Assembly: GCA_964187785.1 (NCBI GenBank) | Contig: OZ076409.1 | Span: forward strand, 7,008,001 to 7,072,000 | Direction of reading: 5' to 3' | Source: Amphiscolops sp. MND2022 | Lineage: Eukaryota | DNA length: 64,000 nt | Shown here: positions 2,825-60,400 of the stretch, one piece after another | Layout of the letters: each line of letters opens with the position of its first letter | Position numbering within the stretch: position 1 is the first letter of the stretch | The notes under the pieces: generated by a model | Databases searched by the model: none | The model's input: the letters and a program-made list of their open reading frames with translations, nothing else | Told to the model about the DNA's origin: nothing | Made by a program: the position numbers and the translations under genes

Positions 2825-4016
2825 GCCACAGCTTTACATCCCCTGAAGCGACCGCGCCGAAGCGTTTCAGTGAATCGGTTAGCGGTTCGTATCTCGGGGC
2901 TTTGAGGTAGCGCTATTGCTTTCATTTTTCTGTGCCATTGCAAATTGCATCTCTTTTGTGACGTAATATACTTAGTTTTATGGCTGCTCTTCTTTTCACT
3001 TGCTTGATTTTACGACTCTTTCACTTCGTTTACTCCAGAAACTTAATGGCGCATTTTCCTTTTACAAATTTCCTTTCCTCTGAAGATTTCCTTTGTGCTA
3101 GTGATTTCAGGAAGACACTTTCTCGCTGGTTCTTTGTTATGGCGGAAAACGGCGGAATTGATTATTGTCCATGTGGAAATTTTTTGCCCAATTCTTGCGA
3201 ATTAGATATAATCAGGTTCTTCCACATTGCTACTAAATGCCTACCCAAGTTTTCTAGCTGTTATTGAAGAATGTCCCTATAGAACTTCAGAAGGGCTTCA
3301 TCGGTTATCCGGTTTCACGGGTTGTCCCATTCAGTTTTGATGAATAGCCCTTTTTGAATAGCCCGAATTACCAAAAAGTCAATTAATTTTGAAACCACGT
3401 GAATTCGAATCAGTGTATTGTACACGATCTACGATTGAACGAAAAAATATACGAGTTGCATGTTATACGAAGATGCCATTATTATACGAGTTGTACGGAG
3501 AATAGCTTTTCAGCCACTTTGCGTCGATTTTCCCATAACGCACTTGAAAAGGTTTTGGAAATATGAAATTGTGATGAATTTAAGCATCCCAAAAATGGTA
3601 ATAGGCAATATGGGATTAGAAAATGGGGCTATTACTATCCCCTTTTTGAAACAATTAACACTTTCCAATGAGAAATGATCAAAAAATGTGCTCCATGCCT
3701 TTATACGATAAAAGAGGCCAATTACACGAATATACGATATACGAAACCTTCGGTTATACGATTACACGTTATAAGAGGAACTCAGTATACGACAATACAC
3801 TGATTCGCATATCGTTTTTTTTTGGTATGATAGTCAATTTTGCCGATTGGAATTGACTCAAGATCGAGTGAATGGTGTCACACCAACAAATGCAGTAAGT
3901 TTTTATTTTCCTCATAATTCATTACACTTGCGATAAGCAAGTGCTATCAGAAAGTGCGGGCGCTTTTTTTTCCTGCGCGACAACTCTCATTTCACGCGGC
4001 AAGTCGCACAGTTCAC

Positions 4017-10556: not shown

Positions 10557-13500
10557 ATGATGGATAACTTGGGTTTCATGAACATTACCTCTGACATCAA
10601 CAATTCCATGTCGAGCAACAACTCAAATGGCGAGAACGAAATTGTTGCTGGGCCCGCGAGACCTTTTTGGTTCCTGTTCTGTAAGATCTTTCTCAACATC
10701 ATGGGCATGCTTGGAAACTCGACAGTTATTATAATCTATTCGAAGAAGAAAGATTTCAGACCCAGCGAATGTTTCATCCTGTCTATCGCTTCCGTCGATT
10801 TCTGCTTTTCCTTTCTCAGTTTGCTGCTTTGGGTCCTGGGCTTCTTCTCTGCAAACACGGAAACGATCAACAGTATGCTGATCACCTTTGTGATCTACTA
10901 TTCGCTCTATCTCATCTTCTGGGTCAGCTTCAATCGCTACATCGCAGTTATCAAACCCATCGATTACATGCAGATCTTTTCCAGCCGAACAGTTTTCACC
11001 ATCATCGCCACCGGATTCCTGTTCGGAGTCATTTTCGCGATGATACCAGTTCTCTACTACAACACTAGGTAGTGTTCAATACTGAAACTGAATTTAAAAT
11101 TGAAACTGAAACTGAAACTCTAGGTACTGAAACGATTTTGAAAAAACTGAAAGTGGAACTGAAACTGAATTGACAAAATAAATAAAACTAAAACTGAAAC
11201 TAGAACTGAAACATACGAAACAATTATTTCAGCAAGTCCTTGTTTGTTGCCAAACGGGGACCCTTTAGCCTCGTCCAGTTTTGTATGTTATGCTATAAAA
11301 GAAACAAATGTTATAGGCACGTTAAGGTGCAATTTGGCGCCTTAAAATTTTGTAGAACTTTTGGTAGAACTATTTTGGTCACTTCAGGTGTATCGAAACA
11401 AAAAGTGACGAAAAGCCATGACTATAGTCTACTCTTTTCTTAAGAAAAGCGCCGACTAAAAAACTGAAACAAAACTGAAACTGAAATAGATAGTAAAGTA
11501 ACTGAAACTGGATCATATAAAATTTAATTTCAGTATTGAACACTAACGCTAGGTCCGAACTCTATCACAAAATTTTGGACGCCGTCTACTATTCGAGCAA
11601 AGTTTTCTTCATTCTAGTCGACATAGTTTTCATGTGTGTCGTCTACAGCAACGTTGCATCTTTGGAGAGTCGCAAAGCCGCTAAGAAGAATGCTAACTAC
11701 AAGGGCGCTGTCACGGCCGGAGAACCCCAGTCTCATGCTTTTGGCGGGGTTGGCACCAATGCAGAAATCGGCAATTGTGCCTCCAAAAACGGAGTTAAAT
11801 TTGCCGGAGGTTAGTGAATTGACTCGTGTACTGAATATGGTGGATCGTGTTTTTCGTGTATTTTCAGGAGTCGGAAAAATTGTGCCTTTTCTCTCCCGAC
11901 CTTTCACTGAAAATTTCAAACTTCTCAAAAACTGTCCATACGATTTTTATGAAATTTAGCACAGTCATTCTACACCCTAGGGTGCTCCTGAGTGCGCAAT
12001 GCCATCAAAATAGTATTCCTGGAATCTGCGAAACGACGAAATGACAAAGCAGGTAATTAGTTTTTCAATAATCCGTTTCCGGCTCCTTTATCGCACATGC
12101 GGCTCTGGTCTCATATTGCATCGGTATCGTGTCCAAAAAAAATTATCATACACGGTAACGTGTATTGACTGAAATAAATCAAGTTTTTGAAAGATAAGCA
12201 ATTTCGTGGGAATCGATAGTTCGTGTAACGGTACCAGAAAATTCGTGTCAATTCACTGCCGGGGGTGTACCAGGGTCAATGAACGCTGCCGGGCAGAACT
12301 GTCTCAAGGAGCACCCAGTAGTTCTGGAAGAGTCTTCTTCCCGATTCAGTGTGACCCCCAACCCCGCTGCTGATGAAATTGATGTTCTGACCCCCTCATC
12401 CCATTCACCCACGCTGAAGTTCCCCTGGAGAAAGGGAAAAGGGAGGAATGCAAAGGAGAAACCCAGGAGTCTCTTCAAACTGTCGCGCAGGGCGACCGCA
12501 GAGGGCAACGTTGTGGGCACGAATGCGAATACCCCTGCCTCCATCCCAGCTGATCAAGTTCAAGACATGGAAATGAAGCAAAACGAGTAAGTACTTTATT
12601 CAATTTTCTGCAATGGCCTGACGCAATTGTTGCTGTATTGTGCAGTTCTTTTTCATTCCTTTGTTGCTAAATTATGCTTGAAATGCCTTTTGGGGTCCGA
12701 AGCAGAAATTAGCAGCAGCCGGTGTAATTTTTTAGGAGTCATTTCTCCCGACCTTTCTTTCAATGAAAATCTCAAATTTCTCAAAAACTCCGTTCGATTT
12801 ATATAAAATTTAGTACAGTCGTTCTACTACACCCAATGATGCTCCTGCGTGCGCAATGGCATCAAAATCATATAACTGTGATCTGAGAGACATAGCCAAA
12901 ATTGTTAGAAAATGGCAAAAAAAGGTCAATTTCTCAAAAACTGTTTTAACGATTCGAACGAAAATCTTTTTACAATCATTCTACCCCATATTAGAGTCCT
13001 ATGTTTGCAATGACATCAAAATCGTATGACTGTGATATGAGAAACATTAGTCCAATTTTTTGGACAACAGCAATTTTGGACTTTTTCGATTTTCTCAAAA
13101 ACTGTCCATACGATTCAATTTTAATTTGCTTTCTATTTTAATTCGTTTGCGACCCCCTTACCGCACATGCACCTCTGGTCTATCATGAAGTTCTTTGGAC
13201 TTGAAGTTGACGTGAATTTAGAGGCAAATATGATTCAGAGTGAAGACTCATTTTTAGTCGGCGCTTTTCTAGTGAAAAGTGCCCGACACTTACAGTGGCT
13301 AGTTTTTTTCCTTTTTTTTCGTCAGACTACAATCTCACTCTGATTGGGCCACTTTTCTTACAATCGAAACTACTAAAACTACTACCATAAGGCCAAGTCC
13401 GGTCAGCGGAAATTAGTGCAAAAGGGTCCCCCCCTTCATTTCTTACTATTTTAACGTAACCTACAAAACCGGACGAGACTAAAGGGTTTTTCGATCCCCC

Positions 13501-16500
13501 CTTTCGATTTTTTCCGGCATTGTGCGACTTTTTTTCGAAAATTTTTTAATGTCTCAAAAGAGTCCCCCTTTCGAGTTTTTTGATATTTTGCAACAGAATA
13601 TATGTTAATAAAGCCCAAAGGGTCCCCCTTTTACATTTTTCGGCACTAAGCGACATTTTCTGAACGAAAAAAAATCAAAAATTTCAAGTTTTTTTTAAAA
13701 AAGTCTTTGCGCTTTTTGAGCCTTAGATATAGCGCCGACTTTAGATGTTCCCGTCTTGTTTATCATGGAATTTTTGAAGAGAACCTGGTCTGAATTCAGT
13801 CGAAATGAATTTATCACAGAGGGAGGGATGATCAAAACACCTGTGTTCGTGCTGATTTGATTCAGAGGCGTCGTATTCCGAAGGCGGAGTGATCTAAGAA
13901 TATCTAATGGAGTGTCAATAAAAACTTCACAATTCTCTCAGCAGGTCTGAAAGTCAAGTCAAGAGATTACCCGCCAAGCCTAGGCTTTCTTTGCGTCCCA
14001 AATATTGCCCCCAAGGTGAGAAACTTTGAACTGAACAAACTTACCCATTCATTGACCTGGTAGGAATGGGCGTGATTTAGGAAATCTCCCTTTTCTTTTC
14101 AAAGTCAATGTTGAAATGTCCGTGCTGTGAAAATGAATTAAAATTATCATAATACTCACAACCGAATAAATTCCTCCTGAAAGATAAAATCCAAATTCTC
14201 TAAATTTCAATTAACCTGTTCGCGGTGCAGATTGTAATTGGCTTTGTGAGCTAGATCCATCCAATAATAAGATTTTGAGGTTCACAATTTTGGCGACTTG
14301 TAGTTTTTTTGCACTAAAACATGATTTCATTTATAATTTCATTTTCCATTCACAAATCATTCATAACAAAGTTCATCATTTTGTCAATCCGTTCTCACTT
14401 TGCGCTTGTGAAATATTGGTTACCAGACAAAAGCGTCCAAAAAAAACGGAGTCAAAAGCGCCCAAAATACGCAGTCAAAAGCGCAGTCAAATTGATATAG
14501 TTCGTTCAGAAATGCCAAATTAGCCGTTCGAGTCGCTTTCAATTGAGATTTGTTAGGTGTGAAAATATCAAGTCTGGCATTCCAAGTGAGTTAACTTTGT
14601 ATTTGAACACCTTCAATTAAGCTTCATTAGAGGCGGTGAAATCAACTCAGAAATTAGTAAGACGTTTTGCATGAAGGCGCTTTTGACTGGGGCGCTTACG
14701 ACTGTGTAAAATGGGCGCTTTTGTCTGTACACGGAAATATTACATTGTTGGCTCATTTTTATTTTCGGCAGTCATTTTTGGCCGACAGCGCTATTGGCCG
14801 ACTGTGCAATTATTGACCGGCAAAATAATTTCAGAACAGCGGAATCTTACAATGGACTTTACATTTTGAAAAGAATTAAATTAGGTTTTCATAGGATGAG
14901 GAAATTGACCTGATTTTGATTCGAAATGATCTAATTTGTTTTGTTCCCATTTAAATGAAAAATAGATGTGTTCGCAAACAATTTTTCATGCACATATAGC
15001 TTTTGATTAGATGCGAATTACAGTTACATAGCAAAATTGAGAATATTTTCGCTGATATCCAAGCATATTCAATCGGGTCAGCTAACTGCACAGTCGGCCA
15101 GTTGAGCGAGCGGTCGGCCGATTACACTGCCGCCGTCATTTTTGTCAATTTCATTTGCGACATCGCACAGAGGGATGAACTTAATAAGGTAATGAAAAGT
15201 CTAGTTAAACGGGGAAGTAATTTTGGCGGATACCATGAGAATTCGAAATGACTTGCATCCAAGCTTGAGACTCAAATCCCTTTGTGGGTTAGGACGGATT
15301 TTTTTAAACGGTCCTTCTGCAATTCTACACCGTCTAATTCCGTTGTTTGATGGTTAATTTATGTACAGTGCGCTTTTTCTGGACTAATCATGAAGCATCC
15401 TATTTCACCGTAACGTTGCTTTTTTAAAACTGATCCAATTAAAATTGAAAATACAGTACTGTAGTTAAGAAATCATTTTTTAGACAAGATTTGCTCAAAA
15501 AATTGGCTGAACTTTTTGAAAAACATCCGAATTAAAAGTTTCTCGAAATTTCATCTAGTTCACATTGGTATTTTGAAAAAAATTGAGACAAAATTTGAGA
15601 AAGGTACGAATGGCTGATTTTGAGCAAAATTGTGACTTTTTGCCGTTCTTCCAATTTTGACTGCTTTATCCACAGTTTTTTGGCAAGTTTTATGCCCAAT
15701 TAATTCCCATAAATCCACTGAATCCGTGAATGTATTCTGATTCAGTTTTAATTGGCTGAGAACGTCATATGGAGCCGATTTGTTGTTCACAGTATTTTAA
15801 GCCAGTGCTGTAAAGGCGCTTTAGCTTAATCGGGAAAGTGCTAGATTTCTAAGCGTAAGGTCAATGGTTCGAACCTCGCTATTAGCCGATCTTTGATGTA
15901 AAGGATGTTAAGGTGTTTTCTTCATGAATAAAACAATTTTAAAAAACTTTTTCAGACACTTCTTCACAGTTGTTTATGGTCTAGTTTCTGACTGTTCAAT
16001 TTGTTTGGTATTTTTTGTTCACAGACCATAACGCCTCGTGTGAAAGATGATATCTGGAAAAATTCAATAAAGTGAATGACTTTCATGCTTTATATTCCTT
16101 TGTTAAATTTTTGTACCACGAAATATTTAGCAACAAATTAAAAACCGGTGTGAAAACGACACAATTGTTTTACAAAATAGTCTTCCCAAGAGGAAAAAAC
16201 AATAAAATACAAAAAACAGTTTATTTCGTTAAAAACATGTTTAAAACGTTTCTCGTGAAAAGAAAACTGTATAATTAACAACCTTTGATTTAAGCTTGAA
16301 AAGGCGCTATTGCCTAATCGGTAGAATGCTAGATTTCTCAACGTAAGGTCAAGGGTTCGAACCTCGGTATTAGCCGATCTTTTATTTAAGCTCGAACCTG
16401 GACGAGTCGAAGTTAGACGTGCAGCAACAGCCGAAAAGCAGACAACTCAGTGTGGACATGACTGTTCTGGACTCGGAAGTTTCCCCCCGTCGCAAACCCC

Positions 16501-17343
16501 CCCGAGTAGCGCTGCTGAAGAAAGCCCTTACGGGCGTGGACCTTCACCCCGATCGTACGAACAACGGGGGAGGCTCCAATGACCGGGAAACTTCTGCCCT
16601 GAATCAAGGTTGTCAAGGTGTTTTATTCATGAATAAAACAAGAAAAAAACACGAATGAAATTTTAAAAAACACCATTTTTTCCTGTTTTTTTTCAGAGCG
16701 AAAAATTGAGATTAGACTTGAAAAAATGTCACCGCCGTTTTTGGGGAACAGAAACCATTCCTAATTTCAAGGACCCCTTTTTATAATCACTGAGACAAAA
16801 TTTCTGGTAATCGAAATATTTGGCAACAAATGAAAAACCGTTGTGCATAACACATTGTTTTCAACGGTAGTTTTCCCATGAGAAAAAAATCTAAAATACA
16901 AAGAAACAGTATATTTCGTTCAAAAACTTGTTTAAAATCTTTTTCGTGAAACAAACTGTATAATTAACAACCTTGCCCTGAACCTTGCAGCTGCGCCCAT
17001 CAACGTGACCCCGGGCGGAATGCTGAAACCGAGGACCTCGTTACGACAGAAACGAGTGACGTTCACCTTGTTTTTCGTCTGTTCCATCTTCATCGCTGTC
17101 ACCCTACCCTTCACCCTGGTCGAGATCCTCTCCTATGCACCCCCCATCTTCAATGCCAAACCCATCGTTGTCTATGAACTGAAACTGGTCACTTACTTGG
17201 TGTATTGTATCAATTTTGTAGTCAACCCCTTCATCTATTTCTTCGGAAACACTTTCTACCGCAAGGAACTCTTTGAGTTGATTAACAATTCCTTCTTCTG
17301 TGGAAAATGTAAGCTGTTACTCCCTCAAAACTCGGTTGCTTGA
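10557..17343 (+). CDS. Class A (rhodopsin-like) orphan GPCR, spliced: join(10557..11068,11553..11809,12274..12586,16391..16608,16991..17343), 550 aa
   Basis: Exon 1 has N-glycosylation-rich N-terminus, TM1 GMLGN, TM2 SIASVDF, TM3 SFNRYIAV, TM4; exon 2 has TM5; exon 5 has TM6 FIAVTLPF and TM7 NFVVNPFIY (NPxxY). GT..AG introns with compatible phases 2/1/2/1; total 1653 nt divisible by 3. Start codon and exact junctions are not confirmed by transcripts. Confidence 0.88.
11070..11545. mobile_element. hAT-like MITE forming GPCR intron 1
   Basis: 18-bp perfect TIR TAGTGTTCAATACTGAAA / TTTCAGTATTGAACACTA; 8-bp TSD acactagg (11062-69) / acgctagg (11546-53); internal (AAACTG)n repeats; nested HINE fragment ~11245-11463. 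Confidence 0.9.
11812..12258. mobile_element. hAT-like MITE forming GPCR intron 2
   Basis: TIR TAGTGAATTGACTCG / CGTGTCAATTCACTG; TSD ccggaggt (11804-11) / ccgggggt (12259-66); sibling copy at 42026-42720; nested HINE-C ~11862-12110. Confidence 0.88.
13251..13760 (+). mobile_element. HINE-A copy (GPCR intron 3)
   Basis: Same 5' and 3' termini. Confidence 0.75.
15454..15800. mobile_element. Tc1/mariner-type MITE, relative of 2092-2404
   Basis: TA|CAGTACTGT start; interior matches the reverse complement of 2092-2404; right end approximate. Confidence 0.7.
15815..15887 (+). pseudogene. tRNA-like sequence (second copy 16303-16375)
   Basis: TAGCTTAATCGG A-box-like, GGTTCGAACC B-box; stems degenerate. 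Confidence 0.6.
15900..16286. mobile_element. Sibling copy of the intron-4 MITE, inside intron 3
   Basis: Shares start aaggatgttaaggtgttttcttcatgaataaaacaa and end aaactgtataattaacaacctt with 16605-16975. Confidence 0.8.
16605..16975. mobile_element. TIR MITE (CAAGG termini, superfamily uncertain) forming GPCR intron 4
   Basis: TIR CAAGGTTGT / ACAACCTTG; TSD ccctgaat (16597-604) / ccctgaac (16976-83); sibling copy at ~15900-16286. Confidence 0.82.
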
Positions 17344-19275: not shown

Positions 19276-20439
19276 CTAATTTCTTGCTGCAAATTAATTT
19301 CATGTATGTGTATTGTACCTTGAATGTAACATTGAGCCAATCATCGGCTCGACTGTATTTCACTTTTCCACTAAAATGTTTCATAATCTCGTACTATGGA
19401 AATGTAATAGTTTCTTTACCTTACATCCAGCTAAAACTGTTTAAAGGACTTTCATACCATATATATTGTAAAATCTCGTTTTCAGATGCCAAACGTGTCA
19501 GAAATGAAATGAAAGTGATTGACATGGTTTTCGTTGTCCAGTTCACTGTTACATTTAGGTAACGTGTCAAAATTGTAAAATTGTATACTGAGACTTCAAA
19601 TCTGAAAAAAAGGCATAATCATATGAGAAAATGGTCTACCACCAGCTTGTTGAAAGGATTAATTAATTTTTTCGATGGTTTTCAAACTTCATGAAGAAGA
19701 GGGTTAAATCCAAAAAGCAATTTCGACCAATTTGTTCAAAGTATTACGCCGATTGGAAGTCCTCAAGCCACATAAATTAATTTTTCAAGAGCAGCAGATG
19801 AAGCCGGGTAAATTAACCGACAAACGGTTCATAGCGCGTTCGAAAGAAGACAATCAGGGCTTTCAATCTGATTTTTGAACTGGCTCCGAACTTTGCGCCA
19901 AAACTTTGCACGCTTCGTATCTCTGATTTCATTTCAGCATGTTTCAAAACATGCTAGGGTTACTCTGACCCAATATTGATACCAGTGTGGTAAAAAGGCC
20001 AGAAACGAAAACTGGAAAGCGGAAAATCTGCGCTCAATTTGTTTTTGATTTTTTGGTCCCATTTCCATGATTCCGGAAACATGCCAATATTCCGTGAAAA
20101 GGCATGCAATGGTATATGGCAAATATTATTCAAGAATTTTTTTCACCATACGGTCAGCTAGTGCGTTGAGAAGTTCGCCGAAATTAACTGGTACGAAATC
20201 GTACCATGGTCCATTTAGGGTTAAAGCTTCCAAAACTTTATGAATAAATTCATGACATTCGGAAAATTTAAAATAATTTGCCGAATATGAAATACCATCA
20301 AGTTTTAGTGAGTTTTGAAGCTTCTAAGAACGTATCAAGAGGCTCCCTCCTGTGAATCGATCCAAATTTTTTGTTATTAAGTTCGTCCAAAACAATTCGT
20401 CCATTTTTTTTGCATTTTTTACAATAGGTGTATCGTTTT

Positions 20440-20726
20440 TGCACATGACGAAGTCAATGTGCATTGCAGTCCAGCTAAGTAAGTTTTTTTCCACAATAGT
20501 CAACTTCATAATGAGCGCCTTTTAGAAAAAAGCCAAAACCCAGAGAGATTCGAACCTGCAGCCTCCCGATTGCACGGCATAAGTGTTGACCACTGTGCCA
20601 TAGGGACGTTATTGAACAAAGTTGAACTGTTGAATATATACGCATGCGATTAAAATAATATATATACGCATATTAAAATAATCGATGTCTTCGTCATGTG
20701 TTGCGAAGCACCGCTTCGCCTGTGTG
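20440..20726 (+). mobile_element. HINE-B with internal antisense tRNA-like module (copies ~23131-23419, ~28372-28664)
   Basis: Subterminal inverted repeat CACATGACGAAG / CTTCGTCATGTG followed by hairpin GCGAAGC-ACC-GCTTCGC. Confidence 0.68.
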
Positions 20727-21070
20727 TCAATTGAAACATTCACAGACATAGAAGCATCAAAATACTGATCTATAGCTTGAGCTATAGTTTCCGCTCGACG
20801 TTCGACATTTTGATGACATTCTGAGTAAATGACAGTTTGACATTCGTGTCCATTTTCCCAATAGTTGTCGTTTAGCAATGTTTGCAGTTGGTGTGCACAA
20901 AGTCCGCCACGGAGACAACGCGTAGGCGTGAAATGATTTTGGAAACTTACGTTGAAATACACTCCAAATAATCTTCGATAGAATTCCATTCCGAGCGATT
21001 AATCGGTTAATCGAAATACCGATCAACCTTCGAACATCCCTAATTCTCGCCAATCAAATTGCGACATGAT

Positions 21071-21470
21071 CAGGGCTGTTTGAAAAAAAACATGAGGTGT
21101 TTAAAACATTGTTTTAAACAGTTGTTTTTTAAATAAAAAATACACATTTGTATATTTCTTGGGAGCCCAGTCATTTTGCGGAAAGTTTGGCTAAGCACTT
21201 GTCCCCTGTACCGAAGACCTACTTACTCTCTGTCCGTCAAGTGCGGGATCAGAAAGAATTTTCAGTACCATGGGGTGGATCCACGATGACTTGAGGAATT
21301 GAAACTGTGGAAAAACTTACATTTTGCGCAAAAATTTGAGAAAACAATTTTTGTTGCATAAGTTTGTTTTTGAAAAAATACATTTTTGTACTTAAAACAA
21401 GTGTATTTTTTAAATGAAAAAACGTTTAAAACGTTTTTATTTTGAAAAAAGTGGTTTTTTTGCAGCCCTG
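21071..21470. mobile_element. hAT MITE (copy 23764-24164 in the tandem duplicate)
   Basis: TIR CAGGGCTG / CAGCCCTG; perfect 8-bp TSD gacatgat. Confidence 0.88.
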
Positions 21471-24400
21471 GACATGATTGCATTTCCTTGTTTTTCTGAC
21501 TGTTTGAATGTATAAAACATGAAGCAGAAGCCATGCACAAAACTACTGAAGAGACTGTTTCTCATGGAATTCAACTGCCTTTTCTTGTCAGTCATTGAAA
21601 ATTTTTGACTATCTTTCGGAGATCATTGACTATCACTTGTTACGCCGTTTCTCGATTCCGTTCGAGCAAATGTTCCGAATTGAAAAGAATCTTTAAGCCA
21701 ATTACACTGCAGATAAGTATCCCAATAAAATGATGTACTGCTTTTTTCTGTTTGCCCATCTATTCTAACTTCATAATTATCCATCTTTTTGACTTATTCA
21801 AGCTCATTTGACTTATTTTTTTTCATTGTTTTGATATGAAATCGTTATACGACATCAAGTCTGCTGCATTTATAGCCAAAAAATAAAAGGTTTGCCAATT
21901 AGTCCTAATGATATTACTTTTTGTGGATCCCTATTGTCTTCCGTTGAAAAGATTCCTTGAAGTGAGTGCAACCGTAGAGCATGAATTGCTCCCTTTGTGA
22001 AAAAATATACCTTTTTGGTATAAGATGTATTATTTCACATACAAGTATTTCACTTTTCCACTAAAATGTTTCATAATCTCGTACTATGGAAATGTAATAG
22101 TTTCTTTACCTTACATCCAGCTAAAACTGTTTAAAGGACTTTCATACCATATATATTGTAAAATCTCGTTTTCAGATGCCAAACGTGTCAGAAATGAAAT
22201 GAAAGTGATTGACATGGTTTTCGTTGTCCAGTTCACTGTTACATTTAGGTAACGTGTCAAAATTGTAAAATTGTATACTGAGACTTCAAATCTGAAAAAA
22301 AGGCATAATCATATGAGAAAATGGTCTACCACCAGCTTGTTGAAAGGATTAATTAATTTTTTCGATGGTTTTCAAACTTCATGAAGAAGAGGGTTAAATC
22401 CAAAAAGCAATTTCGACCAATTTGTTCAAAGTATTACGCCGATTGGAAGTCCTCAAGCCACATAAATTAATTTTTCAAGAGCAGCAGATGAAGCCGGGTA
22501 AATTAACCGACAAACGGTTCATAGCGCGTTCGAAAGAAGACAATCAGGGCTTTCAATCTGATTTTTGAACTGGCTCCGAACTTTGCGCCAAAACTTTGCA
22601 CGCTTCGTATCTCTGATTTCATTTCAGCATGTTTCAAAACATGCTAGGGTTACTCTGACCCAATATTGATACCAGTGGGGTAAAAAGGCCAGAAACGAAA
22701 ACTGGAAAGCGGAAAATCTGCGCTCAATTTGTTTTTGATTTTTTGGTCCCATTTCCATGATTCCGGAAACATGCCAATATTCCGTGAAAAGGCATGCAAT
22801 GGTATATGGCAAATATTATTCAAGAATTTTTTTCACAATACGGTCAGCTAGTGCGTTGAGAAGTTCGCCGAAATTAACTGGTACGAAATCGTACCATGGT
22901 CCATTTAGGGTTAAAGCTTCCAAAACTTTATGAATAAATTCATGACATTCGGAAAATTTAAAATAATTTGCCGAATATGAAATACCATCAAGTTTTAGTG
23001 AGTTTTGAAGCTTCTAAGAACGTATCAAGGGGCTCCCTCCTGTGAATCGATCCAAATTTTTTGTTATTAAGTTCGTCCAAAACAATTCGTCCAATTTTTT
23101 TTTGCATTTTTTACAATAGGTGTATCGTTTTTGCACATGACGAAGTCAATGTGCATTGCAGTCCAGCTAAGTAAGTTTTTTTCCACAATAGTCAACTTCA
23201 TAATGATCGCCTTTTAGAAAAAAGCCAAAACCCCAGAGAGATTCGAACCTGCAGCCTCCCGATTGCACGGCATAAGTGTTGACCACTGTGCCATAGGGAC
23301 GTTATTGAACAAAGTTGAACTGTTGAATATATACGCATGCGATTAAAATAATATATATACGCATATTAAAATAATCGATGTCTTCGTCATGTGTTGCGAA
23401 GCACCGCTTCGCCTGTGTGTCAATTGAAACATTCACAGACATAGAAGCATCAAAATACTGATCTATAGCTTGAGCTATAGTTTCCGCTCGACGTTCGACA
23501 TTTTGATGACATTCTGAGTAAATGACAGTTTGACATTCGTGTCCATTTTCCCAATAGTTGTCGTTTAGCAATGTTTGCAGTTGGTGTGCACAAAGTCCGC
23601 CACGGAGACAACGCGTAGGCGTGAAATGATTTTGGAAACTTACGTTGAAATACACTCCAAATAATCTTCGATAGAATTCCATTCCGAGCGATTAATCGGT
23701 TAATCGAAATACCGATCAACCTTCGAACATCCCTAATTCTCGCCAATCAAATTGCGACATGATCAGGGCTGTTTGAAAAAAAACATGAGGTGTTTAAAAC
23801 ATTGTTTTAAACAGTTGTTTTTTAAATAAAAAATACACATTTGTATATTTCTTGGGAGCCCAGTCATTTTGCGGAAAGTTTGGCTAAGCACTTGTCCCCT
23901 GTACCGAAGACCTACTTACTCTCTGTCCGTCAAGTGCGGGATCAGAAAGAATTTTCAGTACCATGGGGTGGATCCACGATGACTTGAGGAATTGAAACTG
24001 TGGAAAAACTTACATTTTGCGCAAAAATTTGAGAAAACAATTTTTGTTGCATAAGTTTGTTTTTGAAAAAATACATTTTTGTACTTAAAACAAGTGTATT
24101 TTTTAAATGAAAAAACGTTTAAAACGTTTTTATTTTGAAAAAAAGCGGTTTTTTTGCAGCCCTGGACATGATTGCATTTCCTTGTTTTTCTGACTGTTTG
24201 AATGTATAAAACATGAAGCAGAAGCCATGCACAAAACTACTGAAGAGACTGTTTCTCATGGAATTCAACTGCCTTTTCTTGTCAGTCATTGAAAATTTTT
24301 GACTATCTTTCGGAGATCATTGACTATCACTTGTTACGCCGTTTCTCGATTCCGTTCGAGCAAATGTTCCGAATTGAAGAGAATGTTTAAGCCAATTACA

Positions 24401-27400
24401 CTGCAGATAAGTATCCCAATAAAATGATGTACTGCTTTTTTCTGTTTGCCCATCTATTCTAACTTCATAATTATCCATCTTTTTGACTTATTCAAGCTCA
24501 TTTGACTTATTTTTTTTCATTGTTTTGATATGAAATCGTTATACGACATCAAGTCTGCTGCATTTATAGCCAAAAAATAAAAGGTTTGCCAATTAGTCCT
24601 AATGATATTACTTTTTGTGGATCCCTATTGTCTTCCGTTGAAAAGATTCCTTGAAGTGAGTGCAACCGTAGAGCATGAATTGCTCCCTTTGTGAAAAAAA
24701 TATACCTTTTTGGTATAAGATGTATTATTTCACATACTGCAGTCACGTAATCTAGTTTAACTTTTTTTCTCAATCGATAGGTTGCCAGGATAAAGCAGTT
24801 AACAATCAAACCCCTGTAGCTGGCAGTTTTCTTACTGACACCGTCAGTCGATCTTTTGTATGCTCTGAAAACTAAGTTTTGTAATTGTTAGCATCTTGAC
24901 ATCGAAGGATGGCATTTCGTTTAACTTGTAATTTAGCTAACAACGTTATTTTCTGCCCATATTCCATATGGGAAAGGGAAATATTTAACTACGCCGTGTT
25001 TTTCCCCGAAATTTGCTATGGTCCAAAAACATACTAAAACTGAAAGGATTGACCCATAGAATTCAACTGACATAAACTTCTTTTCATGCGACATGTATTA
25101 GTATAGATTTTTGGACTTTTTTGGTTGACGGAATGATAATCGACAAAATATTTCGCGTTTGTAGCGGCCACTCAACTCGCACAGCGGAATTGAGTTTTTA
25201 AGCTGGTCCCTGATGCTTCCCGCTTCTTCGGCAAAAGCAGGAGCAACCTTTCAAGAGGAATGTGTCTGGTCAATCAGATCTTAGATGCTAACTGCCTCGG
25301 GTGACTCGACTCCACGCTATTTAGGCTAAACAATACTTCGATCCCTATCCCTCTTTTGACAAAGCTGCCTCGCTTCTTGTTATCTGGAGTACTGTTGTAC
25401 ACCCAAACACTGCAACTGACCGTCCTCAACGAATAGTTTCCACCTCCAACGAAGGGTTTTTCGTCCCACTTTACGATGAGCTTTTAATCTCGCTAATACG
25501 ACGAGCTATTTTACAACCCTTTCCTAGAACTTGGACCTACTGCGCCTAATTATGCTATTGCGAAATTTTTCTAATTGATTTGGACGCTCAAAAAAGCTGA
25601 TAGTTTTTCGATCGTTGAGCAGTGCAATGCTACCCGTCCAGTCACTACATTTCCAAACCGGAACCGGAGTAGCAACTCGAAAGCTGTCGAAGACATTTAA
25701 ATTTTAGCAAAATTTTCATTAGCCTTCTGAATTTGATATCAAAATTGGTCAAATTAATACTCTACTCAGCTGATATGCAAACGATAACCTTCACAATCAC
25801 AAAATATTCGAAGGACAAAATTGCATGACATCAGCTTTTGCATCACCTGTTTGGATTTATCGCACCTTCAGTTTGGAATTTCCTTCCAAATTTTCCACGA
25901 TGAGGTGAATCAATCCTGGAAACTGCAGTATGAACGACAATTTGTCCGATAGGTTGAATAGATGATATTTGACTCAACACGCCACCGTTTTCGTTCAAAT
26001 GGAATCAAAGTACAGAGAACTTTGAAAGGAAAGCTGAGCGGCATTACCAAATTGATCATTTGACATCAAATATTCACAATAGCACAAGTTAGTGATTTCG
26101 TGTTGGAGTTGCGTGTATTTTGGAAAGTTAAACTCAAGAGTTCAACTAAATGAGGTTTATGTTAAATTGTCCATCTCTGGTGCCAACAACGTTTTTGACA
26201 AATTTTGTAAAGTTTTGATAGAATTCGCGCGTTAGAACGTTGAAAATGTTCAACAACGAATGAATTCGTTGTCCAGTTGGTTTTTTGAAGCGGAAAAAGC
26301 AGTTTGTTGTTTGTTTTTCCTTACATGTTCGTGATTTTCTCGCGTATATTCTGAAAACAAGCAGTTTTCATGGAGCGAGTGAATGTTCGTAAATATGCTT
26401 CCGTACGCCGAGTTATTGAGATGAAGCGAACGAGTGTTAATTATTTGTTCGCCGAGAGCTTCGCCTGCATTCAAATGCGAATGCGAAACCTCGTCCACGC
26501 TGAGTAGTTTTATCTTCTTTAGTCCGAGAAGATTTGAAGGCTGTGTAAACTGGTACAGTGATTAATGGTACAGTGCGCTATATAAATGATTACGATATGC
26601 TTCTATTATTGAACATGAAAGCCTAAAAGCAGAAACAATACTGTGGCCCTGCAGGGGCCTACTTATGGAATACAGTAAATTTGTCATTTTTGAAATTAAC
26701 AGACGTCTTGCAAATCCGGCATCGTTTGCTTTAAAGTTTTGGTCGAAAATAGTTGATGTCGACATAATCCTTTCTTTTACATTGACTGCCAGTTAAAAGT
26801 TGCTCATTAGATTTAATGATCGAGAAAGTTGTTGTTGAAATATGGGCCTTTCCCGGGGGGGGGGGTGTTTGTTTCCGCCAATGCTGTTGACATCTAATAG
26901 CAACCAGTTGATCGATCAACTTGAAAAAGTGCGTCGTCCATTTTATCGTCAGTCATGCATTCAACTTGAATTGCATTATATTGAATAGAATGGTGATATG
27001 GAATGAAATGGAATTTTAATTTAGATAGTGTTGCTTGATGTGTTGCTTTGTGAGCTTTGGTAAAAAGCGCAATTTCAGCCCAGTACCAATGCTGAGTGTC
27101 AGATACAGAATGGTTTTTGCAGAAGCACACTTTGAAGATATAGTCCACTGTTATGCTAATGATGATTGCTGGCTGGCGGTTGTGCATAACGGGAGCTCAG
27201 AATACACTACAGACTCAAAGGTCGAAAAATGCTGTCTAGTTCTCGCTTATCTTTCAATCGTCTCAAATCACATATTAATACCGCGTTCTCTGGGCGGACT
27301 ATGTTTCTTATCCCCCAAGGTACACCTTGTTCCGTATTTCCCCACAGACACAAAAAAAAACATTTTATTCAAAAATATTTCAATAAGAGAATATGGATGT

Positions 27401-52129: not shown

Positions 52130-53260
52130 CCCCTGTTGAATTTTTAAAAAGACGCATATCTAGTATTTTATTGACAAACCAGAGTTTCTAATACATTGTG
52201 AAATACGATTGGGCATAGAAGAATAAAGTTTTTCGATGAAAGAGTCCTTAACATTATTCCAAACAGAATAAACTGCTTCTTCGAGGGTGTCCGGGGTGAG
52301 GTGCATTGCGTTGAGTTCCCTCTTCATTTGCGCCCAGACATTTTCTATGGGGTTGAAATCTGGGCTGTATGAGGGCCAGAACTCTTTCGCAATACCATTG
52401 TCATGAAGCCACTGCTTAACTTCCCTCGATCGATGGATGGGACAGTTGTCATCCATGAAAAACTGGTCCTCGCCCAACGTGTCGATTCCGGCCGTCTTCA
52501 GCAGATCAATATAGTCTGCACTCTTGAATCTTTTTGGGGTCTTCAACAATACTCGAGACCCATTGCCACTTATGCAGCTCCAAAATATCATTGAAAATCG
52601 CGATGTTGTCTTCTCGATTGTTTTCTCTGGCTTGTACCGAGTACCAGTGGTCCTCCAGACATAGACTCGTCCATCACTCTTCAATGAAAACTTGTATTCG
52701 TCGCTTAAAACAACGCGTTTCCACTCCTCCACGGTCTTATTACGTTTCTGCTTTGCCCAGAGCAGTCGATTAACACGGGTTTCTGCTCTCATTCGAAGCA
52801 TCTTCGCAGCGGCACGGCCTACAAGGTCCATTTTGTGCAAGTTTCGTCTAATTGTCTTTGTAGATACATTTTTCATGCTGAAACTGTTGAATAGAACACG
52901 AAGTTTTTCTGCCGATGCCTTTTTGTTCTTTACAATTCTTCGCAGCCAATTTTGATATTTTTGTGTCAATTTCGGAGGTCTACCACTCCTTTTTGCGCCG
53001 TCTACACTGCCATTTTTCAGGTAGTTTTTATAGATTGTTTGAGCCGTTGATTTGTTTGAAAAACGCATCTTCTCTCGAATTTTCTCCCACGAAAGCCCCA
53101 AATCTCGAAGAATAACGACCTTAAGGCGTTCTTGAGACGTTCTTTTAACCATTTTAAACGTTATAACGTTTTAACAGTGAACGGAAGTAAGTTTTTTTTC
53201 ACGCTTCCTAGAAATTTTATACATTTAACTAGCATGCCGTAAATTTTGGTTCATGCACTG
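52130..53260 (-). mobile_element. Tc1 element retaining only one TIR
   Basis: Minus strand begins TA|CAGTGCATGAACCAAAATTTACGGCA at 53260; no matching TIR seen downstream of the stop codon; left boundary approximate. Confidence 0.75.
52160..53152 (-). CDS. Tc1-family DD34E transposase, uninterrupted 330 aa ORF
   Basis: N-terminal HTH region with GRPPKL; SDE, DDNCPIH, WPSYSPDFNPIENVW; 34 residues between second D and E. Confidence 0.95.
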   Translation of the reverse strand: MVKRTSQERLKVVILRDLGLSWEKIREKMRFSNKSTAQTIYKNYLKNGSVDGAKRSGRPPKLTQKYQNWLRRIVKNKKASAEKLRVLFNSFSMKNVSTKTIRRNLHKMDLVGRAAAKMLRMRAETRVNRLLWAKQKRNKTVEEWKRVVLSDEYKFSLKSDGRVYVWRTTGTRYKPEKTIEKTTSRFSMIFWSCISGNGSRVLLKTPKRFKSADYIDLLKTAGIDTLGEDQFFMDDNCPIHRSREVKQWLHDNGIAKEFWPSYSPDFNPIENVWAQMKRELNAMHLTPDTLEEAVYSVWNNVKDSFIEKLYSSMPNRISQCIRNSGLSIKY

Positions 53261-53491: not shown

Positions 53492-53687
53492 TGTGGCATG
53501 AAATGGCAAAACGAACAATACAATTAAAATGAACATTGAACTATCTGCCACTTTTATGATATCATGTAATGTTAATGCATATATGAAAACACACTGAAAT
53601 AACAGTTACAATTCAGATTTGCTTTGATACTTACACTCTTGCTTTTAATTAACTGTATTTATCCTCTTGTTTCTCCAAGTTACTTCA
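53492..53687 (+). repeat. 5' LTR
   Basis: TGTGGCATG...TTACTTCA, direct repeat of 60573-60768. Confidence 0.96.
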
Positions 53688-53700
53688 TGGCGCAGTCAGC
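53688..53700 (+). promoter_or_regulatory. Primer-binding site (tRNA-Ser-like)
   Basis: TGGCGCAGTC immediately after the 5' LTR; resembles the complement of a tRNA-Ser 3' end. tRNA identity is tentative. Confidence 0.75.
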
Positions 53701-56088
53701 GTCTTGAACAAAAAGAAAAACAATGGATAACAACAATACTGACCTCAATTCCACGGAGGACAGACCGATGTCTTCGGAACAGACAACACGGACAACCAAC
53801 AACCAAACGATGTCAGAAAGAGCGGAAAAAAGCAAGTACAAGATTCCCATTTTGTCTGATAGAGAAACCGATCTTACCAAAGCCAACCCAAAGATGTGGT
53901 GGGAACAAATTTCGGAATACATTCTTTTGACCTACAACCGAAACTTGGACGAAATTACCGATGAAGGAGTAGAATACATGGACCCTCACACGGTATACCA
54001 CATAAAAGGTGACGTTATCTGGGCTCTAGGCCCAAAAGCCAAACATGAAATCATGAGAGGACAATGGGGCCGAGAAATAAAAGATGTCAAATTGCCAGAA
54101 TTATTGACACTATTCAAAAAAACTTTTTTCCCGGTAAGAAACGTCTTCCACAGCAGGGCCCAATTTTTCAATATGAAGCAAGACGATAACGAGACTTTAG
54201 ATGAATACTGGAAGAGGCTCGTGGACATCGAGAGAAAGTGTGACTTTGGGAACATAACGGCAGAAGAAATCATCACGTACAAATTTGCAGCCACAATTAA
54301 AGATAAACGAGCCCGGGACAAATTCATAAAGGGCCCTCTGAAAATACAATTGGTATTAGAGACCATAGAGCTCGACAATTACAACAGAAAGTACGGTGAT
54401 AAAAAACCCAAAACCAAAAAAGCCAAAAAAGATTCCACAAGTAGTTCAACAAGCACCGAACTAATCGGACATACGAACCAATCACGGAAGCGGAGGACAC
54501 AATTTAACGACAAAAAGAAATTAACGAACAAAAACTGTCGCTTCTGCGGAAAGCCAAACTGGTCCATGGAACACATTTGCCCGGCACGGAGAGCACAATG
54601 CAACAATTGCAAAAAGATGGGACACTTTGCCAAGGTTTGCAAATCCAAGACCGTAAGCCGGATAGCCGAAGTGGTTTCATCGGACAGTAACACCGAATCA
54701 TGGCCGGAAGTGGACCACATTCAATCCGTGAACGGTATTAACCGAGTCGACTTCTACAAAACTATCCTATTGGTCCACGGCCAGCCAATAGAATTCATTA
54801 TTGATACCGGCTCTCCAGTGACAATTATTCCGCCAATTATTGATTTAACCGAAGTGAAGAAAACGACAAAAACATTTGTGGACGTAAACAAGAATCCAAT
54901 AAAATTCAAGGGGGAAGCCATGGTTGAAGTGAAAACAGAAAAAAGCAGAGAGATATTACCAATCTTAATAACAGAAAATAAAAATACTCAACCGTTATTG
55001 GGCTTGGACTGGCTTGATAAATTGGAAATTGGATTACAAGGCAGCAAGAAAACAAATGTTATTCGTCATGTGACAGAAGACGAAAGAAGAAAAAGAATCC
55101 TCAACGAATACGAAGATCTATTCAAAAACAACCACACTATCAAAGACCTTACCATCGACATTCAGTTGAAAAAAGACGTCAAGCCAATCCAGCAAAAGGG
55201 ACGGCCGGTCCCTATCCATTTGCAAAAAATTGTCCGTGAAGAGTTAGAAAAACTAATAGACAAAGGACATCTGGAAAAGGCTGACAGAACAACTGAAAAT
55301 TGTTTTGTATCACCCGCAGTTATCACCATCAAAAAGGACAAATCAGTCAAAATAGCTCTGGATTCACGAAAACTGAACGACGCATGTATAAAAAGAAAAG
55401 CTGCAATGCCGAACATGGAAGAATAGATTAGCAAAATCTCCGCAAAAATTACCAAAGGAAATGGGGATATTTGGATGTCCAAAATCGATCTGGATTATGC
55501 ATACGGACAAGCGAAATTGTCGAAAGAAGCCGCAAGACACTGCGTATTCTCCATCATTGGAGGAGAATTCACCGGACACTACCGGTTCAAGAAAGGCTTC
55601 TACGGTTTATCCGACATCCCTACGGTATTCCAAGAGCACATCGACTCCGTGTTGGAATTCAAAACATCGGTCTGGCTAGACGACATCATATGCGTGACTA
55701 ACGGTGATATCGAAGATCATGAAAAAGAATTGCGAGAAGTTTTGTCAAAACTGCAAGACGCTGGTTATCGGGCAAGTGAAAAGAAAACAGAATTATTCAG
55801 AAAGGAATTAACCTGGCTCGGCTACTATATCAACCAAAACGGCGTTAAACCAATCAAGGACAAAACGGAAGCAATAACTAAATTAGAAGCCCCGAAGAAC
55901 GTGAAAGAACTGAAATCATTCCTGGGATCAATACAACATTTATCAAAGTTTATCAACAATCTATCGAAGAAAACCGACGAAATGAGAAAACTCTTGAGAA
56001 AGGATACCAAATGGGAGTGGACACCCGAGATAGACGAAGACTTTGAAAAGCTGAAGAAAGAGATCACAGAGGCCCCATGCCTAGCACA

Positions 56089-57428
56089 CAGGGCTGTCAT
56101 ATTGTTAGTTAAAAACGATATTAACATGTTAACATGTAAATTACACAAAAGTAGATGTAAATAACAGTAAAATTGTAAAAATCAAAATCTTAGTCTTTGT
56201 TCAACTGCTTGAACAAAAAGGCCATTTTTCCCGCTTTTTCAACTCCAAGAGAGCTGCGTAGCGTTCCATATGTCAAGCCTAGGGTTGAAAAGTAGCGCTC
56301 GAGTCCTGCACTTGAGGCTACGGCTGTGACAATAGAGCAGGCGATTTGAACCAACTTCGCAGAAAATCCAAATTTTATGCCACCTTTCCACCAGGCATCT
56401 GGTGAGACATTTTTGGAGATTGCCATGGAAACGATGGTCGAGCAGATTGGCAGCAAAAGTTAATAACAAGTTGTTAATAACACTATGTAAATAACATGAC
56501 AGCCCTGCTTCTTTCTGCTGCAAAATATCTTTTGAAAGCAAATTTGCCATATGGGCATGACAACCATATGTGTGGATTTCTGAAAATCGGTTCCTCATTG
56601 ACGCCATATTGGCTGCATTGTCAGTAACTACACTGCAAATTTTAACTGAAAATTCCGATTCTACAAAGGCTAACTGCTCACGGACTATACGCTCTAAATA
56701 ATCTGCTGTATGCGATTCGCCAGTTGTAACCATGGTAGTAACTAAATAGGGCACCCCTTGGCAAATAAAACATACTCCAAGGACGGGCTCATTTGTGAGG
56801 GTGGACCACCCATCGATGGCAAGCGTAGCATTCATGCCCCTGACTTTTACCTTGACTTTCTCTTTTTCTTGCTCGTAAACTTCGTCTAAAAGTTCACCCG
56901 CTAGTCTTCGGCGATCAGGGATAACAGCTCCGGGCTTCATTTTCTGCACAAAATCTTTAAAATTTTTGTTCGCGGCGGCATTGAAAGGTGTATTGGTGGC
57001 GACAAAATAGCGCACTAGAGAAAGATCCATTTCATGTTGTTTGGATTTTGATATGCAAATGTCCATAGTAGTCTGCTTCAAGACCTTAGAGGGCCCAGGT
57101 CCGTCTACTTGCTGAACATCTTCATCGTCAGGTTTTGCTGCGCATTTCTTCAGATGAGCTTCCAGTCTAACAGGATTATTCACAATTTCCGTATTGCAAG
57201 CCTTGCATTTCCCTTTTTTAACACCATTAACAGTAACAGAAAGAAATTTATCCCACACCGGCTTTTTCGCTGGAGGCATTTCAGTGATCTGAAAAAATAC
57301 AATAACACCGAATGATGAAAATCCAAAAAAAACTGTTAAAATCGGATGTTAATTTCAAAACATTCATGTAAATAACATGTAAATTAAAGGCTTGTTAATA
57401 ACACTATGTAAATAACATGACAGCCCTG
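56089..57428 (-). mobile_element. hAT transposon (internally deleted) inserted in Gypsy pol
   Basis: 12-bp TIR CAGGGCTGTCAT; perfect 8-bp TSD ctagcaca (56081-88 / 57429-36). Confidence 0.96.
56190..57279 (-). pseudogene. Truncated hAT transposase (BED finger, catalytic N-half, C-terminal dimerisation remnant)
   Basis: WDKF..CKAC..HLKKC; AIDGWS, VVTDNAANM, GCHAH; then in another frame WWK..ASSAGLERYFS..RSSL; middle missing. Confidence 0.9.
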
Positions 57429-60400
57429 CTAGCACATTTCGACCCACAGAAGGAAAACTACATCACCACAGATGCGAGCAATACCGGATTGGGCGCAACA
57501 CTATGGCAGAAAGAAGGTGAAACTTTTAGACCCGTAGCATTCGCAAGTAGATTTTTAACTGATTGTGAAAAGAAATACGCAATTAATGAACTAGAATTAT
57601 TAGGGGCTCTTTGGGGTTTAGAATACTTCAGGTATTTTGTGTATGGAAAAAGAGTAAATTTGTTAACAGATCACCAGGCGTTACAACCGCTATTGAAAAA
57701 GAACCGAGCTCATAAGCAATACAGCGCACGATTAACACGTTGGCTGGATAGATTGAGCCATTTCGATGTCAATGTTGAATACACGGCCGGTAAAAACATT
57801 CCGCTGACGGACTATTTGAGCCGTCATCCGATTATACCATCCGAGATTGCCGAACTAGAAAACAAAGCGGACGGATTAACCGAAGCGGAAGCCGAAGAAG
57901 AGTTCGTCATTAATCAAATATACGGCTTATTAGAATTCAACCAAAAACGCGGCAGCATAAAACGATTCACTGAACGAAACGACACGACAGAAAAATTCAA
58001 CCAATCACAACGCGGCTCTAACACACGCGAACGGAACCAAAATACTCACTTGCTTAAAGCCTCACCGTTACCAAACAGCAGCATTTCAAACTCATTCAAA
58101 ACCTTACCGTCGCCAAGCAATAAAATGGACAAGGTCAACAGAATTGATATGGATTTTATATTCAAAAAGAGAGGCCATTCACCAGAAACGAAGCGTTTAT
58201 GGATCGAAAGAAACCATATCCTGAAACCGGACAAAACTCGAATAGTGGGGAAGGGCAAAGAAAGTGAGAGAATTCAAGAATATAGACCCAATCAAGCGGG
58301 GCGAAAACGAATTGCGGAATTAAACATTGAAATTTATAACCGTTTCTTCCACTATTGCGAAACATTAAACATGACCCCTTTACAAGAATTTCAACAGAAC
58401 AACAATGAATCCTGGACCAACAGCAATCAGTCCGACGGAGAAAGCCAGACGAGCCGGACAAAGCAAGACAAATGCCCCACCAACGCATTGAGACGGTTCA
58501 AGAAACACGAAACGGTCAACCTCATTAGACTGAAGCAGACGGCCAAACTGAACACGCTAGAGCCAGAACAAAATGAGAAGACCGCTGACGTACTAAAGAA
58601 AGCAGAGAAGGATTTTGCATTGGACCTGCCTCTACTGGTGGAGGAGACAGCACGCGATATCAAAATCCTAAATACAATTGCCGCAATTGAACAGCAACAA
58701 CTGGAGAGCATATTCTATCCATACCGCCCCCACCGTCTACATCTATCAACCAGATTCGGACTGCTATTTTATAACGACAGAATAGTCATACCGGAAAACA
58801 TGCGGTCGACAATCATTGCTATGCTGCACCACGGCCATGTCTCCAAAAACAAAATGGAACAACTCGCAGAAGCCTTCTGGTGGCCCGACCTGAACCGAGA
58901 TGTACACGAAAAAGCGGAAACATGCCCGAGCTGTAGAGCTGCAGGTAAGAACATCATTACACAAATTCCGTCAACGGAAAAAAATAATTTAGAAATTTTA
59001 ACCGAACCGAATCAGGAGATTCAATTGGATTTCGCCGGTCCAATTAACTCAAAATCACGCGGTGACGTTTACATTTTAGTAGCAGTAGACAGTTTTAGCA
59101 AGTGGCCCACCGCACAAGTATGTAAAAGTGCGGATACTCGGACCGTTTTAAAATTTTTAACCGAATATTTCACAAACAACGGGACACCACAGTGCATTAG
59201 AACCGATAACGGCAGCTGCTTCAAAAGCAGCGAATTCAAAAAATTTTGTACGGATGAAAACATAAAACGTATAAGATGCACTCCGAACCTACATACCGGC
59301 ACTGGTCTAGTCGAGCGTATGATACGGACAATTAAGTCATTAACTAGAGCGAATATGGCCGATGAATTAAACTTTGAAGACAGCATCCAATTAGCAATCA
59401 AAACAATCAGACAGACTCCACACAGTAGACTAAACATGACGCCTTTTCAAATGCACTTAGGCAGAAAACCACGAACTGCACTTATCAACATAATCGGTAA
59501 ACCTGAATGTCTGCTATCCAATTGGAAGAAAACGCTAACCAATTATATTTTAGCACAACCAACAGAGTTACAAGTAGTCACCATCAACGACGCTGAAGGG
59601 GAAATGGCCGACTACCTGGTACTCAACGATACTCGAAAAAGAAGCCGTTCGGTAAGCCGGAAATTCAAAAAATATCAGTTTTTAGAAAAAGAAAACAGAC
59701 CCAATTCAATGAAATGTGGTTTTAAAACAGATAAAATTTTAACGGCAACAAAAGAAACCGATCATACTGTCACTACCTCTGATGGCAGGATAATACACAA
59801 AAAACTGGCCTCTAAACCTTTAAAATTTCAGACCCAAAGGAAACCAGACGAACCGAAGAAGGCCATTACCCGCTGCAAAAGGTGCGGAAAATTCAGCAGC
59901 GACAAATACTGCGAAGCACACCGACAATTAGACAGTAATAACAATGACGCCGAGGAAGGACCTAGCACCAGCCGCAACTTCCCGACAATGCCCGCAAAGA
60001 AGAAATACAAGCGGATAATCACTTACGATTCATCCAGCAAAGAATCCAACACCGCCGACCCCAGCTCGGGAGAAGATAACCCCAACTCCGACAGGGAAGA
60101 AGATCCGGAGGAGACAGACCTCAGAGCCGAGATCGGACGGGAAATTGAAAGATTGCGGGAGCAGACACCGGCACCCACAACACAAGTCGGATGTAGCACC
60201 GGACGGGCCAGCACTCCACCACAACCGGACGTTCAGGGCACACCGATACACCGCCAAACAACGCTTGACACTGGAATCGAAATCGCCGAACCAGGAGACG
60301 GGATAACAGGTAAAATTAGGGCGGAACAAAACTCTTACTTTGGAAAAAAATCAAATAAAATCAGAACCTGAACCGCGTAGATCCGAAAGAATAAAATCAG

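Follow-up and report, generated by a model that had tools for sequence, protein, structure and literature searches.

Imprecise intron gain by transposons has been reviewed (PMC3443670), and introners of the TIR/TSD type are described as taking their splice sites from the element, the TSD or the adjacent exon, with codons gained or lost in the process (Gozashti et al., 2022; PMC9860276, bioRxiv 2022.06.06.494994). Statements on published work here refer to parts of the papers cited. The 2022 survey reported two introner-bearing groups in animals and lists Hofstenia among the genomes in its supplement; surveys in general have reported introners from a handful of animal groups, and their detection is limited to families of similar introns. 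In a later study (Gozashti et al., 2025; PMC12130899), hAT introner families occur among the matches listed (32 of 63), including family fam1 of the tunicate Styela clava with a TSD of 8 and families of switchgrass, Salvia and fungi; the parts of its main text and 14 supplements that we covered contain no acoel name. A related behavior is described for the maize Ds and Ds1 elements (PMC5432752, which cites Wessler 1991), which are non-autonomous hAT elements with an 8-bp duplication; several donors lie in the 35 nt next to one end and give alternative products. The hallmarks of hAT elements are an 8-bp TSD and YARNG ends (PMC3014272). Mean exon counts differ between acoel genomes (6.4 versus 4.2 per gene; PMC10565955), and the genome papers on Symsagittifera roscoffensis and Nemertoderma give intron statistics only in the parts covered. 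We found no report of transposon-born introns in acoels in the open-access literature that we searched.

The window, by which we mean the whole 64-kb stretch of Amphiscolops sp. DNA that was analysed (64,000 nt), contains a class-A GPCR gene (Pfam 7tm_1) with five exons on the + strand. Exon 1 (10560-11068) matches Pfam 7tm_1 with an E value of 1.1e-13, exon 4 (16391-16608) encodes intracellular loop 3 and matches the homologs P0001 and P0014, and exon 5 (16991-17343) encodes TM6-TM7 and the tail, with a Pfam 7tm_1 match of E 8.7e-6 that is a fragment under the curated cut-off. The spliced model is a stop-free protein of 549 aa with 445 identities over 558 columns to P0001, the closest ortholog, which lies complete on a contig of 2,315 nt and is 92% identical in exon 1. 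A second ortholog, represented by P0002 and P0014, is 80-82% identical to the window gene, and homologs in the acoels S. roscoffensis and Convolutriloba macropyga are 57-60% identical. Neither word-index homolog searches nor a full phmmer search yielded another close ortholog or a spliced protein of Amphiscolops sp. In the C. macropyga RefSeq protein P0005 the last exon appears twice, which probably reflects an error of assembly or annotation.

Within this gene, intron 4 is predicted to span 16609-16990 (+ strand, phase 1) and consists mostly of a non-autonomous element of 371 bp (16605-16975; 30% GC, longest stop-free frame 58 codons). The 5' copy of an 8-bp TSD, CCCTGAAT (16597-16604, + strand), is exonic and matches the intronic 3' copy, CCCTGAAC (16976-16983, + strand), at 7/8 positions. 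The 12-bp left TIR, CAAGGTTGTCAA (16605-16616, + strand), matches the right TIR (16964-16975, + strand) at 11/12, and the latter contains TTAAC about 24 nt 5' of the acceptor, which we take to be branch-point-like. Beyond the TSD lie the 7 nt CTTGCAG (16984-16990, + strand) with the acceptor AG, which either come from the host exon or belong to a 9-nt addition discussed below. The coordinates that the earlier note had given, among them the GT at 16609 and CTTGCAG at 16984-16990, all held, as did its placement of that donor inside the TIR. Its proposal that a TIR element became intron 4 was also borne out, with TIR and TSD at both intron ends, an arrangement that 20,000 GT-AG pairs drawn at random from the window did not produce once. 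The family has two copies in the window, both in this one gene: the sole sibling (15900-16286) is decayed and lies inside intron 3; its identity is 59% overall, rising to 83% across 169 nt at the right end and, at the left end, to 92% across 36 nt. Exact-pattern scans for the ends of the intron-4 element matched no stretch in metagenome contigs or prokaryote genomes. A palindromic subterminal stretch at 16620-16640, which has a less exact match close to the right end of the element, is kept in the sibling and is a possible transposase binding site. Two tRNA-like tandem units of 93 nt, 86% alike, flank the sibling (15809-15901 and 16297-16389), and the second extends to the intron-3 acceptor. 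Searches of these units with ARAGORN and Rfam detected nothing.

The start of the TIR offers three predicted in-frame GT donors (16609-16619, + strand), which change the coding length by -3 nt (16609), 0 nt (16612) or +6 nt (16618). The second of these had been overlooked. With donor 16609, the first 4 nt of the left TIR are exonised and the intron measures 382 nt against 379 nt for the element plus one TSD, which agrees with the net -3 nt that had been calculated, and the spliced frame is open through TM6-TM7. We scored donors by matches to a U1-pairing consensus and counted four for 16609, three for 16612 and five for 16618, compared with five, seven and seven for introns 1-3; all three intron-4 donors are therefore weaker than those of introns 2 and 3 (3-5 versus 7 matches). 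Because 16609 and 16618 match U1 similarly, the loss of one codon that the earlier note had announced is one of two about equally likely outcomes: its arithmetic stands for donor 16609, whereas 16618 pairs with U1 at least as well. We predict dominance of 16609 with just under even confidence and dominance of 16618 with slightly less, and regard 16612 as an improbable main donor. The isoform of three additional residues that had been suggested for 16618 holds only when the 16609 product is the reference; against the element-free sequence the gain is two. On the acceptor side, no AG other than that at 16990 lies between 17033 and the nearest in-frame stop upstream (16933), and it is the sole one that leaves exon 5 intact. 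Unspliced read-through of intron 4 meets a stop at 16656, 5' of TM6. Upstream exon-4 donors and acceptors at 17033-17056 were considered and rejected, as they keep the frame but lose 57-252 nt that include residues conserved in orthologs.

Introns 1 and 2 of the same gene appear to have a similar origin, which had been overlooked: both coincide with further hAT-type MITEs that differ from the intron-4 element, at sites that are empty in a relative. Intron 1 (11069-11552) corresponds to a second family (11070-11545; TIR 12/12, TSD 7/8) and comprises the 476-bp TIR element plus exactly one 8-bp TSD, 484 nt in all. Both splice sites come from TSD junctions and the net change is 0 nt, which leaves no scar, and the site is uninterrupted in P0002, P0003 and P0010. 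Intron 2 (donor 11810) corresponds to a third family, a 447-bp TIR element (11812-12258; TIR 11/12, TSD 7/8), at a site that is uninterrupted in P0002; its donor lies in the 5' TSD, its 3' TSD has no AG, and candidate in-frame acceptors lie at 12198, 12219, 12237 and 12273. The TIRs differ among the elements of introns 1, 2 and 4. Three of the five clear 8-bp-TSD elements in 64 kb are introns of one GPCR gene. Intron 3 (12587-16390, + strand) is older and has its donor in common with a relative, as P0002 stops at the matching donor read-through. Elsewhere in the window, a fourth short element with CAGTG ends and an 8-bp TSD (7/8) occupies 3411-3802, outside any gene seen; a near-identical duplication with 2,693-nt spacing covers approximately 19800-25200 (the same ORF text at 21133/23826 and 19816/22506); and short frames at 52257-52673 (- strand) resemble a decayed Tc1/mariner transposase by eye, for which Pfam gave no support.

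The ends of the intron-4 element leave some choice as to its class. The P-element superfamily has CA..TG ends and TSDs of 7-8 bp, with which the ends, taken alone, would be compatible. The earlier note had left the TSD at 8 or 10 bp, and this ambiguity is real at the intron-4 site (7/8 or 9/10), whereas other elements in the window favor 8; the sibling does not settle the matter, as had been said, with best offsets of 4/5, 6/7 and 8/9 and a damaged left junction. A 10-bp TSD with AAGG ends, which would make the element something other than a hAT, gains from the 9/10 match, from intron 1, which also permits 10 (9/10), and from sibling base 16286, a T that fits without an extra mutation; against it, that sibling's left junction needs a deletion under either model, and 8 is the sole TSD length common to the five YARNG-ended elements of the 64-kb window (3411, 11070, 11812, 16605 and 56089). 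A scan for YARNG ends, which is partly circular, gave 76 pairs with near-perfect flanks of 4 nt in five, 5 nt in two and 8 nt in five, and none at 6, 7 or 9-12 nt. A motif-free TIR and TSD scan of the window gave 76 groups, 12 of them with 8-nt repeats versus 0.4 in shuffles, and we used only the per-element lengths from it because many groups are palindromes inside longer inverted repeats. The fifth YARNG-ended element is an internally deleted hAT (56089-57428, - strand; TSD 8/8, TIR 12/12) with a hAT dimerisation domain (PF05699, above the cut-off). Its TIR matches the end of the intron-4 element at 9/12 only in the CAAGG register (1-4/12 in shifted registers), a score reached by 45 of 127,976 12-mers in the window, which speaks against the 10-bp alternative, although the relic belongs to a different family from the intron-4 MITE and serves here as a guide to the terminus and to TSD length. 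We thus consider the 10-bp alternative unlikely. The intron-4 element has CAAGG at both ends, a TIR of 11/12 and an 8-bp TSD of 7/8, and it is short (371 bp), non-coding and repeated in the window; these features suggest a hAT-type MITE, for which a TSD of 8 bp is the better reading. The relic itself has a BED-like start and repeats its right end internally near 56507, and it sits in the pol region of a Ty3/gypsy-like retrotransposon (approximately 53680-60370, labelled from ORF reading). A separate possibility is that the intron is old, was later filled by the MITE and was then lost in relatives. An intron does lie near this region in the distant homolog P0009/P0012 of S. roscoffensis, about 10 codons before the RQ-RVT motif as opposed to 17-18 for intron 4; phase and position differ, and the linker aligns unstably. 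That intron, late in loop 3 (P0012 versus P0009), is absent in the C. macropyga homolog and is possibly another lineage-specific gain. P0014 continues in a single frame from exon 4 into exon 5 across the intron-4 site, and the C. macropyga fragments P0006 and P0007 also have no intron there; three parallel losses would be required, and the element overlaps the donor and covers all but 15 nt of intron 4. We regard an old intron as highly improbable. P0002 is continuous across the intron-1 and intron-2 sites and ends at the window's exon-3 read-through stop; because it stops at the intron-3 donor, its contig represents unspliced DNA with intron 3 only, and we infer from equal size that P0002 and P0014 lie on one 14,281-nt contig. 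Since P0014, the closest ortholog on genomic DNA, reads through the site, we conclude that intron 4 was gained and that its position held no old intron, in line with the earlier note.

If intron 4 was gained, the element could still be an unspliced or polymorphic insertion in a dead or truncated allele. Its donors are weak, and no transcript-derived protein with the window's junction was present among the homolog-search matches. Set against this, the frame is intact in all five exons, three separate insertions have all kept the frame, and the 96 residues that follow the intron-4 site show no difference between the window, P0001 and P0014 (96/96); a weaker point is P0015, identical to the window at 130/155 aa, which likewise begins downstream of the site. 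Mismatches in TSD and TIR indicate age: paired TIR/TSD copies of the three MITEs differ at 5/60 positions, with intron 4 contributing 2/20. With divergence of this size, about 10 changes in 103 codons would be expected in a dead gene (P of none = 5e-5), and this probability rises to 0.09 at 1% divergence, so a young insertion would weaken the selection argument. A dead allele seems to us quite unlikely, and the MITE in the GPCR gene very probably acts as a new intron that is spliced out of the RNA. A further alternative concerns the acceptor only. The earlier note had derived it from host exon; it does lie outside the element, and a host origin would need the 7 nt to be ancestral, whereas the element-free window has four residues between the conserved linker N/T and P (E-x-x-A-x-N/T...P) and the two closest orthologs, P0001 and P0014, have one each. 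The spliced product has three, as do two distant homologs, and the spacing of the pre-insertion peptide that had been reconstructed, A-L-N-L-A-A-A, is matched by none of four homologs. Because the two closest homologs are three codons shorter, the supposed host acceptor may be new sequence, with a net change of +2 codons: an addition of about 9 nt beside the 3' TSD, partly copied from the element end at insertion or in later repair, would have made the AG and rescued the frame (donor 16609, relative to the ancestor). The 8-nt sequence AACCTTGC occurs at 16969, in the element end, and again at 16981, and a comparable repeat at 12-nt spacing is rare in the background (0/1,275 exonic stretches and 140/9,115 window stretches). 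Were the 9 nt missing, the first available AG would be 17033, whose frame fits none of the TIR donors. Intron 2 is alike: two residues stand against a single one in both orthologs, and the sequence GTACCAG recurs from within the element (37/1,275 in the background), while in intron 1, where the TSD provides the AG, protein length is unchanged. Weighing on the other side, the linker is rich in indels and three MAFFT settings gave three registers, the two distant homologs have three residues there, slippage at Ala codons before insertion would equally add 9 nt, and the repeats were spotted post hoc with orthologs known from protein rather than DNA. Given the unstable alignment in three settings and the post hoc repeats, an acceptor created by addition stays a rival that we hold as tentative; it refines the best explanation without replacing it.

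Taken together, these observations make it likely, as judged from sequence, that a hAT-type MITE inserted in the loop-3 coding sequence and is spliced as intron 4. A hAT transposase would have inserted the 371-bp MITE and duplicated 8 bp. The TIR start CAAG-GT would place a donor at either end in either orientation, and the other TIR would supply the branch-point-like TTAAC. Since AG is lacking towards the 3' end of the element, the first AG past the TSD must serve, and the spliceosome would take it at 16990, in frame. The message would then retain one TSD and 4, 7 or 13 nt of TIR and lose 15 nt downstream. If the insertion is old and the gene has been under continued selection, splicing must presumably work. 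The same process with two other MITE families would have given introns 1 and 2. A broader reading is that in one acoel lineage several hAT MITE families set off a burst of intron gain, supplying three of the four introns of this gene, and that a short addition copied from the element end made the acceptor where the TSD had no AG; we consider this reading doubtful as a whole. If it is true, insertion and repair, rather than luck of the target, yielded in-frame introns. The density is what matters here: a single conserved gene owes three of its four introns to three different hAT-type MITEs, and all three introns are missing from a relative of about 80% identity. Because surveys detect only families of similar introns, old gains from multiple families would be missed by them. 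With several acoel genomes at hand, what proportion of acoel introns arose from transposons can be tested directly.

Intron gain by a hAT MITE in an acoel represents a known mechanism in a lineage that seems new for it, and, taken by itself, the geometry of intron 4 is nothing unusual among introners. The element ends coincide with the intron ends, with 4 nt outside the donor and 15 nt before the acceptor end, and the intron is absent at the orthologous site (P0014 and P0006/P0007 are continuous). However, the acceptor offset of 15 nt exceeds the 10 intronic bases permitted by the 2022 pipeline as described, and the family rule of that survey asks for at least four similar introns, whereas here there is one intron per family (PMC9860276). 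We therefore describe intron 4 as an introner-like intron that appears to derive from a hAT MITE. Like the TIR/TSD introners of that survey, it is a non-autonomous TIR element used as an intron, and the Aureococcus introner likewise leaves 4 nt of element and an 8-nt TSD in the message; in contrast, the Aureococcus element carries both splice sites and adds 12 nt, whereas the intron-4 acceptor ends 15 nt outside the element (PMC9860276). Rows for hAT introners with a TSD of 8, among the matches listed, are labelled 'co-opt both', whereas the intron-4 donor is carried by the TIR (PMC12130899). Animal hAT MITEs have the 8-bp TSD, YARNG termini and short TIR seen in intron 4, and are described in the parts covered as genomic repeats rather than introns (PMC3014272). 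The MITE-derived introns of Fritillaria are, as here, lineage-specific introns of a marine animal with TIR and TSD, although they have non-canonical ends, while the window introns are GT-AG (PMC11282704). The maize element Ds1 and the intron-4 element are both non-autonomous hATs with an 8-bp duplication and several terminal donors (PMC5432752). Ds1 also carries two acceptors and its cases are mutant alleles, whereas the intron-4 insertion looks old and fixed, and its three donors, unlike those of Ds1, all share one phase.
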